NCBI RefSeq assembly: GCF_006345805.1
Contig: NW_021832860.1
Location: 32,401 to 96,400 of the forward strand
Reading direction: 5' to 3'
Source of the DNA: Octopus sinensis
Lineage: Eukaryota
DNA: 64,000 bases
Positions within the stretch are counted from its first letter, which is position 1; every line of letters starts with the position of its first letter. Shown here in pieces: positions 13,297 through 53,048 of this stretch. A model generated the notes under the pieces. That model worked only from the letters and a program-made list of their open reading frames with translations. It was not told where the DNA came from and did no database searches. Both the position numbers and the translations under genes were made by a program.

Positions 13297-14123
13297 TTTT
13301 TTCAGCAATATATATATTCTAAAATATTTTATTTATTTCCCTAAGTGTGTCTTTCTGTGTGTAAACAAAAGGATTTTGGTAGATAAAATACTGACTGATT
13401 TTTTTCTGGTTTTGGGACTGAAATATCGGGGTCATGTTCCACATCACTTTTGTTAAATTGCAAAGATTTGCAAGGAAATTAAGTTAGTAATTAGGGAGCA
13501 GCGGTGTGACGAAAATTTTGATACGTCATGAAATGAATGAAAACTGAATATAAAAGCTTTTGTGTTCTTTCAAATAGTGATGCATACTCTCCTATTTAAT
13601 AGCATCCAAATATTACTTCATGTAAAATTTTAAATTAATTTATTTAACACCACTCTCTTTTAATCCACTCGTATAAACTGCTCGTGTGGGTTTTAAAACT
13701 TTAGCTCTACGTCAGCTGAATAACAAGATAAATAAATGCAATGTTTGTGGTTAAGATACAAATTTAACGTCAACTGATATCAAACAGTTTTGTTTCATAA
13801 CAAAAAAAAAGAAAACTTATTTTTTCCACCCACGTTAATCACGTGTTATTTGAAGAATTCACGAGGGGAACATTTCCTGAATGGGCAATGGTAATTGATT
13901 TTTCTGTTGTGAAATGGATATCTAAATTGTGAAGACATATTTGATTACTGCCGGAAGTGAACCAATTCCAATTTATCATCGGATAGAGCCAGAAAATTAA
14001 TTACTAAAATCTTTCTTCAAAATGTAAATAAATTTCTGCAATAACGTCTGACTTTTAGAAAGCTGAGTAAGAACACATCAATATTGTTACATGGCTATAG
14101 AATTTTAGTGTGCCTTAAACAAT

Positions 14124-14167
<44 letters not shown>

Positions 14168-14169
<2 letters not shown>

Positions 14170-14637
14170 TAAGATAGAGAAATTAAGGCCAACAGACCTA
14201 GATAGAGAAATTAAGGCCAACAGACCAGATATAGTTGTCAGAGATCATGAAGAAAAAAAATGCTTTCTAATTGATGTATCAATACCGGCAGATGACAACG
14301 TGTCTCTAAAAGAAATGGAGAAACTCTCAAAATACAAAGACCTGGAAATAGAGGTAACTAGAATGTGGAACCTGAAAACAGAAACAATTCCTATCATAGT
14401 AGGTGCATTAGGCATGATAAAAAAATATTCAGACAAATACATAACAAAAACACCAGGACTTACAAACACATATAACATACAGAAAATTGCACTACTAGGC
14501 ACTGCACACATCCTACGCAGAACACTTTCCATACAATAACCATCAGAGCATCACAACAAATCACAGCACATACCCAAGGCACACAGAGCTGCGCTCGGTA
14601 GTGAAGTGAAAGCACGCTATAAAAATAAAACTACTGA
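14168..14637 (+). mobile_element. 5'-truncated R4/Dong-like LINE (RLE domain plus 3' UTR) in (TAA)n
   Basis: NRPDIVVRD...CFLIDVSIP...KLSKYKDL...IQKIALLGTAHILRRTL, a PD-(D/E)xK RLE. Flanked by (TAA)n; nearly identical to the 3' part of 52453-53048. Confidence 0.92.
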
Positions 14638-16692: not shown

Positions 16693-17576
16693 GGTATTCT
16701 ACTGACCCCGTTGTTACACTACTCTTGTTTAGCAAAATCTCATCAAGGCAACTGCTTACATTACTATTGTACAATGGGGGCGGCTGCTCTAACTTCCTGG
16801 GAACATAACTCTACATCTTCAAATCCTCTTGATTGGTTGGCATGATAGATTGTCACACTGATTTCAAGTAAACGTTATTCGTCAATTTACCGACAAAACA
16901 AGAATGGTCCAATTAACCATTTTGATGATAATATGTTCTATACTATAATTCCTGGTATATTCACATGATGTTCCTTCACAATATGCGGATTTTCGACTCT
17001 CCGATAACGGGGTGCAACTGTGGTGGCTAATTTGAGTTAAATGTAACCTCAAAACCCAACACAATTTCTTTTGGGGAAATCTTTCATCGTTTACTTGTTT
17101 CAGTCATTACACTGCATCCATGTTGGATTACTACCTTCAAAATTTTTTATTCGAATGAATCGATCCCAATACACTTTAACCGTTTTTTTTTTTCAAAGCC
17201 TGGTACTTATTCTATCGGTTTCTTTCACCGAACAACTAAATTACAGGGACGTAAAGACATCAACACCGGCTGTCAAGAAGTGGTGGAAACACACACACGT
17301 GCACGCATACACTCACACACACACACGATGAACTTCTTTCTGCTTCTGTCTACCAAATCTACTCACAAGGCTTTGATTGGGCCGAAGTCGACTTTGCCTT
17401 TCATCCTTTAGGAATCGATGAATCAAGTGCCAGTTGCGTACTGGGGTCTATCTATTTTACTGACCCTCCTCCCACCAAATTCCAGGCCTTGTGCCTATGT
17501 TAGAAAGGATTATTTCTAATGGCTAAATCTGAAAAGAAATGAAAATAAAGTGAATTAGCAGAAATTTAAAAGTGTG

Positions 17577-17608
<32 letters not shown>

Positions 17609-19586
17609 ATAGGCTCTCTGCTATGTGTGTGTGTACGTGCGTGTGTGTGTGTTCAGTGTTTGTGAGTGTGTATGTAAGTGTAAAATAGAAAACAATAATC
17701 AATATTCCGACAAGGTTTTATTGGAGACTTTTGTGCTACACACGCGCGCACGCATAAATTTACATCATATCACAATATTAACAACAGACAATGAAGAAAT
17801 AAGTAATGACAAATGTTTTTGTGCTATAATCGAATTCCAAATAAACAACATAACACCGTATATAACATTTGTACGTCTCTCTTTTTCTTGCAGGCTTCCA
17901 CTCGACACACCACAATTTTAACAACAAACAATGATGGACTATATGCTAGCTACAGAGGCAGTAATTATACCTCGGAGTATTAATACTACCTCTGTCGCTA
18001 ATATAGACTTTTCTCTCAAACCCACTGATTAATCTCTCATGGTATCTACCGTATGGCTTTCTCTAACACAGGGTAAAAATGTTAAAGACCCTCCTTCGGC
18101 CATGAATGACCATAGGATTGCACAAGTCCGGGTAAGGTTGTTTATGGAAGATCAGCAGTCGCCCATCTATACCAGCCTCCGCTCTCCACGCCACGAATGT
18201 TATCCAAGTGAAAGGCAAACACCGATACATCTGTAGAAGACACTTGCTCAAGGTGCCACGCGGTGGGACTGAACCCGGAACCATGTGGCTAGTAAGCAAG
18301 CTACTTACCACACAGTGACTCCTTAATACTGTATCTGTCGCAAATAGATATCTTTTCTAGAGCTGACTGGCTAATCGCGACACCAACGCCTATTCTGGCA
18401 CTGTTTTTTTTCTATATATTGCTGGTGGGGAAACGGTTGTGCGCCCATCATTGAGAAAACTAAGGAAGGTAGAAATAACGTGATCTGGTGGTTTCTGCGC
18501 TTGAGGCAGCGGGGATTTACCTCCCTACTAGCGACATAAACAAGAGTGCACTTTGTGCCAAAAGCCAATATGAGATCTTCTCTGGTGGTATCTACCGCAG
18601 TAGGGATTCTTAAAGATTACCTCTCAATAATGAAATAATTTCATCATAATTCTCATTTTATTTATTTCACTCATTAGACTGCAGACATGCAGAGGCGCAA
18701 CCTTGAAGAATTTTTGATCGAATGAATCGACCCCAGAGCATTTTTTAAAGCCTGGTACACATTCTATGGAGTTCTTTTGCCGAACCGCTAAGTTACGTTG
18801 GTGGGGGGCAAAGACACAAAGACACGCGCACAAGATATGTATGGCGGTGCCCCAGCATGGCCACAGCTCGTGAGCTGAAACTACAATCAATCAATCATAT
18901 ACGATAGGATTCTTTCAGTTTTCCTCTACCAAATCCATTCACAATACTTTTATCGGCCCGGGGCTTGCCCACGGTGTCATGTTGCTTCTAAACAATTGTA
19001 CAGTTTTACAACAATACAATATTTCATGATAGTTGTACTAAAATGATTCTACGGAACAACATAATTGCCGCCAAACAGTGTTTTCCTTTACCAAAGCCAT
19101 TCACAATGTTTCTATCGGCCTGGGGCTTGCACAATGTGTCACGAAATTGCTTCTAAACATAATTGTAAGATTTCATGACTGTTGTACTAAAATGATGCTA
19201 CGGTACACAATATTCATGAAATCAACACAAAAGAACTTAATCACTAATAAAAATGTAAGCAAATTCTTTTACAAATTATTTTGCCAAGTTTCTTTCGCTT
19301 GGAACCTAAAGTGAAGCATACTCTATCATTTCTGCTATTGGCACAAGTCCCGAAATATTTGGTGAGGAGGGAGTTAATCGATTATATCGACCCCAGTGCA
19401 AGACTGGTGCTTATTTTATTGACTGTGAAATGAAAAGGCGACCTCGGCGGAACCTGAACTCACAAGGTAAAGTCAGCCGAAATACCACTAAGAATTTAAT
19501 TCTGTGTGCAAATGATTCTGCCAGTTCTCAGTCTTGCAGTGAAGCATAATTATTGCTTTCAGATTTATATATATATCAATATATAT

Positions 19587-19644
<58 letters not shown>

Positions 19645-19807
19645 TGACGCATATTTGCCATTTGAATATGGCTAACCCCATAGGGTGGATGCTACTGTAG
19701 TTTGTAGCCCCAGGAAGATACCTCCTCCAGCTGGCTATAGACACACTATCTGTGCCCTATCAGTATTTGTGAAGGGAAGTCATCCTTCTCGTCTTCAACT
19801 TATGATA

Positions 19808-19852
19808 CACACGGACTCGAGTTTCAAGGTGTTTACCTATCATCAGCGTGTG
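19808..19852 (-). ncRNA. type I hammerhead ribozyme (inverted copy)
   Basis: Exact reverse complement of 19958-20002. Confidence 0.85.
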
Positions 19853-19957
19853 ACAGTCATAGTTGTCGACGAGAATTCAGTTTCCCTCACAAATACATAT
19901 ACTTTTTCCAGTGTCGATTGTGAGGGAAACTGAATTCTCGTCGACAACTGTGATTGT

Positions 19958-20002
19958 CACACGCTGATGATAGGTAAACACCTTGAAACTCGAGTCCGTG
20001 TG
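19958..20002 (+). ncRNA. minimal type I hammerhead ribozyme
   Basis: cacacg CTGATGA t aggt aaac acct t GAAA ctcgag TC cgtgtg: 6-bp stem I, 4-bp stem II, palindromic stem III ACTCGAGT, GUC cleavage site. Confidence 0.88.
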
Positions 20003-20280
20003 TATCATAAGTTGAAGACGGGAAGGATGACTTCCCTTCACAAATACTGATAGGGCGCAGATAGTGTGTCTATAGCCAGCTAGAGGAGGTATCTTCCTGA
20101 GGCTACAAACTACAGTAGCATCCACCCTTAGGGGTTAGCCATATTCAAATGGCAAATATGCGTCACGATGTGTTACCGCTACTGTTTATAACTCGCTCTG
20201 AGATTTATCATTGCTTGATTTCACTTTTTCAATATCAGTGTCAATCGACACTGGAAAAAGTATATGTATTTGTGAGGGAA

Positions 20281-20994
20281 ACCGAACTTTTAGAAATAGC
20301 AGCCAAAAAATTTTAGCTACTTCCTCTACTATAAGAAAAGTCTCCCAGACAATGTTTTAAATATACCGTAAATAGTCTTTTTACTTACTGAACACTACTT
20401 GGTAAAATTGATAATTAACAATTAATTAATTTTACCCTTTTATTATTGACAAAATAATTCTTTCTCCCTGATAATAAACTACAGATCCCTCTGTAGGGAC
20501 TTGTTGCTCTATAACTCACGTGGGTGGACGAGGGAGGTTACAGAGTCTCATTCGTACTTTTTGAATTCGTTAATACTAGCGGTCGAAGATGGTTTGTCTG
20601 GGATTACTCATATCAGACGGGTATGTTCGATTTTTAGTGCTCTCAAACCTTGGGCTGATGACGGAAATGTTGATCTCTATATCCAACTAATCCAGAAACG
20701 GCGTTCTCAAGTAATCGATGTACGCGTGATCTTTCGTTATTTTTGCCTCTATACCTACGTGAATTATTTTTGAGTATACATTGTCTGGGAGACTTTTCTT
20801 ATACTAGAGGAAATAGCTAAACTTTTTTGGCTGTTATTTCTAAAAGTTCGGTGTGTGGTAAAGTAAATTATTTCACTGAACCCTAATTATATAACGTAAA
20901 GTTTTAAATATACCGTAAATGGTCTTTTTACATACTGAACACTACTTGGTAAAATTGATAATTAATAATTAATTAATTTTACCCTTTTATTATT

Positions 20995-20998
<4 letters not shown>
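20281..20998 (+). mobile_element. hammerhead-bearing unit E2: 547-nt monomer, ~97-nt terminal direct repeat, inverted 5' segment
   Basis: 20354-20450 repeats at 20901-20998; ~20281-20355 is the reverse complement of ~20779-20853; 3' end runs into (TA)n. Confidence 0.75.
20649..20711 (+). ncRNA. type I hammerhead ribozyme
   Basis: cttggg CTGATGA c gga aat gttg...caac taa tcc a GAAA cggcg TT ctcaag: stem I 6 bp with one G-U, GUU site. Confidence 0.75.
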
Positions 20999-21068
<70 letters not shown>

Positions 21069-21116
21069 TGCGTTCTGCGTGTATGTATAAATATAATCAT
21101 TTATTTCGCTCAGTAT

Positions 21117-21176
21117 GTTTAGCTGATGAAGGAAAAGTTTTCATTTAACTAGACTAGAAATTGATCGTTCCTAAAC
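21117..21176 (+). ncRNA. degenerate hammerhead-like motif (E3)
   Basis: gtttag CTGATGA...GAAA ttgatcgt TC ctaaac: stem I perfect, stems II and III imperfect; unit lies between (TA)n tracts. Confidence 0.4.
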
Positions 21177-21262
21177 TTCCGGAATAGTTTATGAATTTCT
21201 ATATGCCCGCTTCCTCGCTTTCAACAAATGTGATATATATATATATATATATATAATATATA

Positions 21263-21298
<36 letters not shown>

Positions 21299-21435
21299 TG
21301 TATGTATATATAATAATTTATGAATTTCTATATGCCTGTTTCCTCGCTTTCAACGAATGTGAAACATACATATCTATGTATGTATGTATATATATATATA
21401 CATACACACATACATATATGAATGTATATATATAT

Positions 21436-21476
<41 letters not shown>

Positions 21477-21479
21477 TGT

Positions 21480-21725
21480 GTGTGTGTGTGTGTGTGTGTG
21501 TGTTTGTGTGTGTATAGAAAGAGAGAGAGTGCATGTTATAAAATCCATTATTAGAATATAAAACAGTCAAAACCAAACTCTCAGGTTAAAGAAATTATAA
21601 TTTAAGATTATAAACACCTGCTTTCTTGTTTTATTAATTTCGCCTATTACTTAATGCTTAGGAATACATTTCTTCGGATAGTTTTATTTATGTGTGTGCG
21701 TGTGTGTGTTTAAGAGAAGATATGC

Positions 21726-21761
<36 letters not shown>

Positions 21762-22545
21762 GGGGAAGAAAGAGACAAAGAGAGAGGCAGAAAGAGAAAC
21801 TCACAACATCAAACATTATGAAACCGTAAACCCTAGAAGAGTGTATATGGTTATAAACATGTACTTGGGGAAGGGGGCTTGAATAATGGCCCTCCCCACT
21901 TATTAATTCTTCAGATCCCCCCACTGCTGTTATCCCCCTCTCTTTATTGATATAACAGCTAGACAATCTAATAATTATTGTATTTTACGTTAAAATATAT
22001 ATATACTAGCAGAAAATCACCTTCCTGACGATTTTTTGCAAGTCACTTGATATTAATTTCACATTTGATTTCCAATTGTAATAATTTTTAAGATAAATTA
22101 CGTCTAATTATTTCTTTGTATAATAGTACCCATTTGCTTAGTAAGTATTGTTTTCATTATTTTATCACAGTCAAAATCTCTCTTTTTTAAGCAAACATCA
22201 AGGTAGTCCCACTACGAGGGAGGCAGTTTGTTAAGTTTAACTTTCCTCTCAAAGCAATATAGAGATTTCAGTTGAGCAGCCCTTCTATAAGCTTTGCAGT
22301 GTGTGTGTGTGTGTGTGTGTGTGTTTGTGTGTGTATAGAAAGAGAGAGAGTGCATGTTATAAAATCCATTATTAGAATATAAAACAGTCAAAACCAAACT
22401 CTCAGGTTAAAGAAATATAATTTAAGATTATAAACACCTGCTTTCTTGTTTTATTAATTTCGCCTATTACTTAATGCTTAGGAATACATTTCTTCGGATA
22501 GTTTTATTTATGTGTGTGCGTGTGTGTGTTTAAGAGAAGATATGC

Positions 22546-22585
<40 letters not shown>

Positions 22586-23125
22586 CAGAAAGAGAAACTC
22601 ACAACATCAAACATTATGAAACCGTAAACCCTAGAAGAGTGTATATGGTTATAAACATGTACTTGGGGAAGGGGGCTTGAATAATGGCCCTCCCCACTTA
22701 TTAATTCTTCAGATCCCCCCACTGCTGTTATCCCCCTCTCTTTATTGATATAACAGCTAGACAATCTAATAATTATTGTATTTTACGTTAAAATATATAT
22801 ATACTAGCAGAAAATCACCTTCCTGACGATTTTTTGCAAGTCACTTGATATTAATTTCACATTTGATTTCCAATTGTAATAATTTTTAAGATAAATTACG
22901 TCTAATTATTTCTTTGTATAATAGTACCCATTTGCTTAGTAAGTATTGTTTTCATTATTTTATCACAGTCAAAATCTCTCTTTTTTAAGCAAACATCAAG
23001 GTAGTCCCACTACAGAGGGGAGGCAGTTTGTTAAGTTTAACTTTCCTCTCAAAGCAATATAGAGATTTCAGTTGAGCAGCCCTTCTATAAGCTTTGCAGT
23101 GTGTGTGTGTGTGTGTGTGTGTGTT
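21480..23125 (+). repeat. ~800 bp tandem duplication with (GT)n at the boundaries
   Basis: ~21500-22299 is nearly identical to ~22300-23099. Confidence 0.92.

Positions 23126-51847: not shown

Positions 51848-53048
<1,201 letters not shown>

Follow-up and report, generated by a model that had tools for sequence, protein, structure and literature searches.

Non-LTR retrozymes have been described from coral, mussel, and axolotl, where they form circles and show dimer-enhanced cleavage, and PLEs have been proposed as their helpers (Cervera and de la Pena, 2020; PMC7229834). For vertebrates, Li, Clavereau, and Pollet (bioRxiv 10.64898/2026.07.22.740005) reported that retrozymes derive from PLEs based on co-occurrence and pLTR similarity; in their in vitro assays 1/9 retrozyme dimers cleaved, and 8/9 Xenopus dimers did not. 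The mobilization of animal retrozymes is stated as open in both accounts. The PLE enzyme itself is better described: the Anolis Poseidon protein cleaves AT-rich DNA on both strands in vitro, and its cDNA begins at two internal RNA sites that bound a tail, with hammerhead cleavage not needed (Frangieh et al.; PMC11167929). PLEs typically show an inverted arrangement in which one end carries a 30-40-bp tail (Craig et al.; bioRxiv 10.1101/2021.04.23.441226), and Chlamys/MRC1 has been identified as a non-autonomous PLE (Craig et al., 2021). The giant squid genome paper, in the text available, counts 235 hammerhead loci and gives no analysis of them.

Here we describe a locus in a 64,000-nt stretch of the Octopus sinensis genome (assembly GCF_006345805.1, contig NW_021832860.1, positions 32,401 to 96,400 of the forward strand; hereafter, the window). 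Our main reading, to which we assign a probability of roughly 0.8, is that the locus holds an ORF-less, hammerhead-bearing tandem repeat (family A) that is likely copied in trans by a Neptune-type PLE, and that a rare LINE, presumably L1/Tx1-like, inserts at one fixed site in the family A unit. Unit numbering starts at 19918, such that the window position equals 19917 + n. The features of the locus are as follows:

19566..19642, no strand: (TA)n microsatellite, left insertion target
19641..19920, minus strand: inverted arm of family A, reading unit 324/325-352 and on into 1-252; the 3' end at 19641 is the family's 'short' end, unit 252
19808..19852, minus strand: type I hammerhead of the inverted arm, same as the plus copy; predicted cleavage after 19814
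19853..19872, minus strand: LINE target site of the inverted arm (unit 21-40), also unoccupied
19918..20282, plus strand: family A sense arm, full 352-nt unit (19918-20269) followed by unit 1-13
19938..19957, plus strand: LINE target site (unit 21-40), empty here; at occupied loci, a copy flanks the LINE on each side
19958..20002, plus strand: type I hammerhead of the sense arm; predicted cleavage after 19996
20169..20212, plus strand: 43-nt 'tail' between the family A 3' ends (unit 252 / 295), bounded by two putative RT start sites (compare PMC11167929)
20281..20355, minus strand: family B inverted piece (75 nt), with a 2-nt microhomology joint to the A arm
20351..21003, plus strand: family B sense arm, 547-nt unit and ~100 nt of the next, stopping at the B 'long' end
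20649..20711, plus strand: second type I hammerhead motif, in family B, with a long helix II and a GUU triplet; predicted cleavage after 20705
20998..21066, no strand: (TA)n microsatellite, right insertion target

At 352 nt and 42% GC, the family A unit fits the size and GC class of retrozymes (150-450 bp, <50% GC), and it folds well relative to shuffled sequences (z = -3.84; 0/100 shuffles). It shares with the mussel (~350-390 nt), axolotl (Rtz331/Rtz353), and coral retrozymes (PMC7229834) a short, ORF-less, tandem, and highly self-paired unit with <50% GC and a type I hammerhead. An earlier sequence-only reading of the window had found no credible ORF, and the longest ATG-started frame is indeed 56 aa when the unit is read as a circle. 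Identical 45-nt motifs on both strands and scattered substitutions between the arms had also been reported, and both were recovered: 19958-20002 is the reverse complement of 19808-19852, and 19641-19892 and 19918-20169 differ at 8 of 252 positions. Most of these differences (6/8) are private, post-insertion changes, and the possibility that the two arms were copied from different templates is thus unsupported. The identity of the two hammerheads would be unremarkable, since eight differences over 252 nt should spare a 45-nt stretch approximately one quarter of the time. The arms overlap by 3 nt (19918-19920), and the minus arm reads across the unit junction as had been claimed, with an ungapped 280-nt alignment (97%) to the doubled unit (unit 325-352, then 1-252). 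Two of the earlier claims held in part. The 13-mer taken to start and end the monomer is present at 19918 and 20270 with a period of 352, but it only reflects the point in the unit cycle where the plus arm breaks off; biologically, the family ends at unit 252 and 295. Likewise, an extent of 19641..20282 describes the family A part of the element, but the element runs on to 21003 through family B.

The family A hammerhead spans unit 41-85, with C17, the predicted cleavage site, at unit 79 (19996). Helix I comprises 6 bp within a longer stem that contains a conserved bulge, helix II comprises 4 bp over a U·U, and helix III comprises 1 bp with a palindromic loop; the core is intact and is left free in the predicted fold of the unit. 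The 1-bp helix III with a palindromic tetraloop resembles that of axolotl Amex1, and the U·U at the base of helix II in the window copy resembles that of Amex2 (PMC7229834). When the definition of the canonical metazoan type I hammerhead is applied (Cervera and de la Pena, 2014; PMC4209133), the motif has canonical helix lengths, and its description as a textbook example is apt in this respect and in respect of its loop and core. It is less apt at 10.1-11.1, where the window copy has U·U and not the usual G-C (G-C is found in a subfamily of 26 insertions and A-U in others). A hammerhead search, which had been suggested as a check, gave a divided result: an Rfam scan of positions 17000-23000 detected no hammerhead even at E<=1, with only chance matches to hairpins and microsatellites, but a 32-nt core pattern had 932 exact matches in the 2.72-Gb assembly. 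The reversed control had 0 matches, so the motif is not due to chance. A looser pattern with a 4-nt loop had 3994 matches (control, 303), and many of the first 100 of these listed were older relatives whose palindromes differ. In the predicted fold of the monomer, helix III hardly forms (pairing probability of 0.001), and the 8-nt palindrome duplex has a computed energy of -10.7 kcal/mol; together, these predictions suggest that the family A hammerhead would fit a dimer-type ribozyme.

A genome search with the unit produced 2573 candidates, the best 40 of which gave 140 matches. The copy number and tandem arrays that had been singled out for checking amount to hundreds of dispersed copies and arrays of up to six full units. 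Core matches ~352 nt apart, the rule by which retrozymes are considered 'active', occur in the family; the window copy departs from this rule, with its two hammerheads on opposite strands. No LTR-like layout was seen in the maps of family A insertions. Among 14 variants, which were hand-selected and related such that their covariation is indicative, 94.5% of cells were paired and 8/21 pairs had changes in both partners, among them the loop palindrome and C3-G8, which became U-A. Several other hammerhead families with no BLAST relation to family A were observed (L217, L228, L231; L226, L230; L220, L227, L233); these have mostly palindromic 4-nt loops, and some occur as inverted pairs.

We mapped 89 family A insertions from the best-matching loci, a set that includes ~5 duplicates and leaves out four insertions below 85% identity. 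Outer 3' ends were located at unit ~252 (62) or ~295 (66) in 128 of 141 cases, and TA repeats adjoin 112 of these 128 ends. Fifty-six inverted insertions have 3' ends on both sides; 48 of them pair one 252 end with one 295 end, eight have one damaged or other end, and none has two alike. The 5' starts, in turn, are scattered over the unit. The earlier reading had invoked the inverted arrangements produced by PLEs, and the prevalence of paired, unlike ends, mostly in (TA)n, bears this out. Such fixed, two-ended, inverted insertions in (TA)n match the tail and two-site priming of PLEs, which argues for Penelope-type movement. Family A further shares with PLEs (Poseidon PAc, PMC11167929; Neptune; Chlamys/MRC1) a one-ended tail, an inverted and 5'-truncated arm, partial tandems, an AT-rich or microsatellite target, and a hammerhead ~170 nt before the first end. 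It differs from PLEs in having no RT/GIY-YIG ORF, a closed 352-nt unit, and a canonical rather than minimal hammerhead.

These ends also bear on whether the unit arose at the DNA level (as a satellite, MITE, or fold-back palindrome) or was mobilized by the LINE instead of a PLE. The near-perfect inverted arms are in keeping with such an origin, as are partly shared variants in some arrays, which are typical of unequal crossing over. However, the 5' truncation is variable and the two fixed 3' ends invariably occur as an unlike pair in (TA)n, which is not what these processes would leave, and the LINE is rare (16 exact LINE-unit junctions genome-wide) and leaves 20-bp duplications, which is a different signature. 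We therefore consider a DNA-level or LINE-driven origin to be exceedingly improbable.

The position of the 5' starts is informative with regard to the template. The unit junction is crossed by 68 of 131 arms, and the predicted cleavage site is spanned by 91 of 131 arms, with only one arm beginning at it (unit 77-84). A cleaved, linear monomer is thus rejected as the template. Arms that cross both the junction and the cleavage site imply a template that is a circle or an uncut multimer, and hence longer than one unit; genomic DNA cannot choose between the two. The proposal of a tandem or circular source is upheld to this extent. Variation within insertions is mostly private (268 versus 101 sites, with many of the 101 at the priming end). 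Collectively, the observations suggest that family A is a non-LTR retrozyme, probably moved in trans by a Neptune-like enzyme from an RNA longer than the unit.

We propose the following sequence of events. Family A arrays would be transcribed, and two hammerheads would pair via their palindromic stems III and then cut, a step that we regard as probable. The monomers may then be ligated into 352-nt circles, for which we see the balance as only slightly favorable. A PLE protein would cut both strands of a (TA)n target, with one cDNA beginning at unit 252 and the other at unit 295; each cDNA would extend past the hammerhead and across the unit junction to varying lengths before stopping, and microhomology would join the resulting truncated cDNAs head to head, generating the inverted arms.

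The involvement of circles in this scheme has to be weighed against the possibility that family A is a non-autonomous PLE derivative that moves via linear read-through multimers only, with a weak or passenger hammerhead. Hammerhead mutants left Poseidon insertion unaffected, and unprocessed RNA was the main substrate (PMC11167929). In family A, arm starts are not piled up at the cleavage site, and amplification has also reached arrays whose core is damaged (U4C plus G5A). The core carries rare variants only slightly less often than other positions do (7/1901 versus 247/46295, with two core columns one base off). Units are homogeneous within an insertion, which a young source array would explain as well as a circle does. 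On the other hand, compensatory changes affect every helix as well as the palindrome across subfamilies up to 30% apart; 11 private alleles are common to all covering pieces of their insertion, several of them in both arms; and the same-sized repeats of mussel and axolotl make circles (PMC7229834). On this evidence, movement by linear multimers alone is a tenable but decidedly less favored reading, and we retain the retrozyme reading, with circles as its less secure part.

Sequencing runs contributed little to this distinction. The unit is present in 14 runs that were guessed to be RNA, none of which is on record as RNA. The joint 20269->19918 was found in 4/4 mapped runs (of 24), comprising three guessed to be RNA and one that is DNA-like. 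Because the joint is also present in the DNA-like run, it is no evidence for circles, and circles and tandem DNA look alike in contigs. Editing of the template by an ADAR-type activity was unsupported (singletons A>G, 22, versus T>C, 12; p = 0.12). As an individual observation, a six-unit array (L080; C2:197248011-197250640) carries the hammerhead core changes U4C and G5A and has apparently been amplified although probably inactive.

An abundant and young Neptune-like PLE was identified in the same genome, with 150/150 scored matches at 97-100% (best 150 of 18570 candidates). It encodes an RT, a CxxxxCxxC linker, and a GIY-YIG region, with open frames of up to 850 aa, and we assign the Neptune label from this architecture. 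At 30 loci, this element (family 1) has a (TA)n target, inverted copies, and a 42-nt tail. A second Neptune-like family adjoins A-like copies at three loci and has its own pLTR. Comparison of the unit with the two Neptune pLTRs revealed no significant similarity (best E of 0.022 over 20 AT-rich nt), and 3' similarity to the unit was absent in the two Neptune-like families and in one other PLE examined. Given this lack of similarity to the pLTRs examined, the Neptune-like PLEs are candidates only for the helper of family A. The pLTR of the first Neptune-like PLE (L111:2437-4986, L081-L110) contains a hammerhead with a U3-A8 core variant and a palindromic loop. Fragments of A-like hammerheads fused to Neptune pLTR ends with no TA spacer (L102:2222-2290 and L219) may be chimeric insertions. 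Another PLE (L079:930-3256), with a C-terminal GIY-YIG-like region that has no Pfam match, lies near a family A insertion in (TAA)n.

These comparisons address the concern, raised in the earlier reading, that the unit is merely the pLTR of an ORF-bearing PLE, in this case one absent from the sample. The ends of family A are of the PLE type, Neptune ORFs adjoin family A or A-like copies at four loci (L024, L163, L218, L219), and the scored matches were the best 40 of up to 2573 candidates. However, all 68 junction-crossing arms run into the family A unit again, 33 outer 5' ends have no common upstream sequence (the exceptions being duplicated loci and the LINE), an in-register PLE ORF is not present upstream, and the adjacent Neptunes each have a pLTR and hammerhead that differ from the unit. 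Neptune-like family 1 (30 loci), family 2, and 20 loci with related hammerheads contained no copy of the unit linked to an ORF. No such link was present in any copy examined, the pLTR reading is largely refuted for the sampled copies, and we consider it very improbable overall.

Taken alone, the family A unit is a further member of the known retrozyme class, albeit one with unusually clear mobilization footprints. A relationship in sequence to the retrozymes of PMC7229834 would not be expected. Dispersed inverted (TA)n insertions and two fixed 3' ends distinguish family A from those retrozymes, and the main text of that paper does not describe them; conversely, circles and cleavage have been demonstrated for those retrozymes, whereas family A is known here from DNA sequence alone. 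The dependence of retrozymes on PLEs is the same conclusion as that reached for vertebrates (bioRxiv 10.64898/2026.07.22.740005), but the evidence differs: co-occurrence and pLTR similarity in vertebrates and, in family A, an insertion signature (two ends, tail, inversion) with no pLTR similarity to the PLEs examined. Our literature search, the scope of which did not extend to Repbase/Dfam, most subscription papers, or the PMC7229834 supplement, found no account of family A, of retrozymes with a two-end signature, or of retrozymes as LINE targets. The proposal of a possibly undescribed retrozyme family is thus sustained insofar as no earlier account of family A was found, and weakened insofar as the class is known in mussel and the PLE link is known from a 2026 preprint. 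The footprints of family A name a mechanism (two-site priming by a PLE) and give exact coordinates, and they suggest that a PLE can mobilize RNAs without visible pLTR similarity. With a young candidate enzyme in the same genome, mobilization in trans and the use of a circular versus a linear template are testable in the published in vitro PLE assay.

Two family A loci break off at unit 40 into one foreign sequence, which proved to be a 5.3-kb LINE (L146:1034-6334; L166-L184). It encodes a CCHC ORF1 (PF00098) and an APE-RT ORF2 (PF03372, PF00078, PF13966) and has no poly(A) tail. We presume that it is L1/Tx1-like from its architecture; sequence comparison for naming its clade returned no named Tx1 references. 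Its target lies directly before the hammerhead, 58 nt upstream of the cleavage site, and both target sites in the window (19938-19957 and 19853-19872) are empty. A search for LINE 3' ends covered 30 loci from the best 40 of 293 candidates. Among the 19 closest 3' ends (>=94%), 17 are followed by unit 21 (including the query and at least two pairs that look duplicated), one is followed by the duplication and a second LINE, and one is off target. The 11 more distant loci comprise one with a diverged A-like flank, one with a hammerhead-like flank that has no BLAST match, and nine with other flanks. Same-target flanks were therefore found at 18 of the 30 loci (including one diverged target), above the >20% taken to denote target specificity. 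At 9 full-length loci (21 loci examined), unit 21-40 is present on both sides of the LINE as a 20-bp target duplication.

Across 15 loci, LINE 3' ends differ by 2.4% on average and their flanks by 0-18%, with no rank correlation between the two (Spearman -0.03), and two older targets that are 25-37% away carry LINEs that are only 4-6% away. Flat LINE divergence against varying flank divergence suggests repeated insertion at one site, and we judge it very probable that unit 21-40 has been targeted repeatedly and independently, with the LINE's own APE endonuclease acting on this site. The upstream and downstream flanks of a LINE locus belong to one subfamily, and a 5' flank brought from a donor of another subfamily was not seen in 10 loci.

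A single old LINE insertion, followed by the spread of an A-LINE-A composite by the PLE enzyme, would remove the need for sequence-specific targeting. In line with such a history, the LINE lies in the last unit in 17/17 cases, and five truncated LINE copies have no upstream family A sequence, such that some LINE copies may have hitchhiked. The upstream flanks of LINE-bearing loci also begin at unit 90-135 in 7/13 loci, compared to 6/67 LINE-free arms, in an interval that was picked post hoc. Yet one composite ancestor does not account for LINEs that differ by so much less than their flanks, including those in the two older subfamilies, nor for the tandem LINE-LINE at L182, in which only the duplication lies between the two copies. 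No fewer than five independent insertions would be needed, to which secondary hitchhiking may add. Spread of one composite thus appears improbable, and repeated targeting is preferred. Nevertheless, flank starts just behind the cleavage site, along with the truncated copies that lack flanks, hint at hammerhead-trimmed composite RNAs carried by the PLE enzyme. These hints permit a more speculative reading, which we regard as doubtful: a three-level chain of parasites sharing one ribozyme, in which a Neptune PLE would move circular retrozyme RNA through internal priming at two sites while the LINE, co-transcribed with the array and freed by the retrozyme hammerheads, would sometimes become 5.7-kb PLE cargo. 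The LINE would then live much as R2 does, using a ribozyme that is not its own.

Known targets of the Tx1 clade include other transposons, U2 genes, and microsatellites (PMC4494074). Tx1L in Tx1D, Tx1-Mar in Mariner-N4, and Keno in U2 share with the octopus LINE an APE-RT, a fixed site in another repeat, and a target duplication, and tandem copies that sandwich the duplication occur in Tx1-clade LINEs and in this LINE alike (PMC4494074). The octopus LINE, which is likened to these elements by architecture, differs in that its target is a ribozyme-bearing retroelement, specifically the 5' strand of the extended stem I in its hammerhead. In the literature covered, no earlier account of a LINE that targets a retrozyme was found, and ribozyme-bearing retroelements would add to the classes of target known for sequence-specific retrotransposons. 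A sister LINE subfamily (88-90%; L186, L188-L194 on contig C28, and L185) has 3' ends that are followed by a different common sequence, which is possibly a second target or a duplicated cluster.

Family B, which occupies 20281-21003 of the window, has a unit of 547 nt here and of ~547-560 nt in the family, is ORF-less (33 aa at most), and has no common sequence with family A. Its hammerhead is conserved in B copies (33 exact 35-nt matches; control, 0), and its tail is 85-100 nt long and contains a hairpin. A short and long end rule similar to that of family A was evident in 32/36 ends (26 loci); 6/10 two-ended insertions are short plus long, and none is alike. The window insertion has an A short end on the left and a B long end on the right, and locus L148 has a B short end and an A-like long end. 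The A+B composite could have resulted from two templates in one event or, with about equal odds, from two neighboring insertions fused by a deletion at the 2-nt microhomology. If the former, a PLE may join two unrelated RNAs in one insertion.

Several minor features were observed elsewhere in the window. A weak CTGATGA...-type motif near 21123 (21112-21150, plus strand) is probably due to chance or is a degenerate minimal hammerhead. Positions 21478-22070 and 22299-22868 form a near-identical direct duplication (~800 bp, 97-100%). The 3' fragments of a restriction-like-endonuclease non-LTR element, which we take to be Dong/R4-like, are present at 14045-14539 and 52278-52856 beside (TAA)n arrays.
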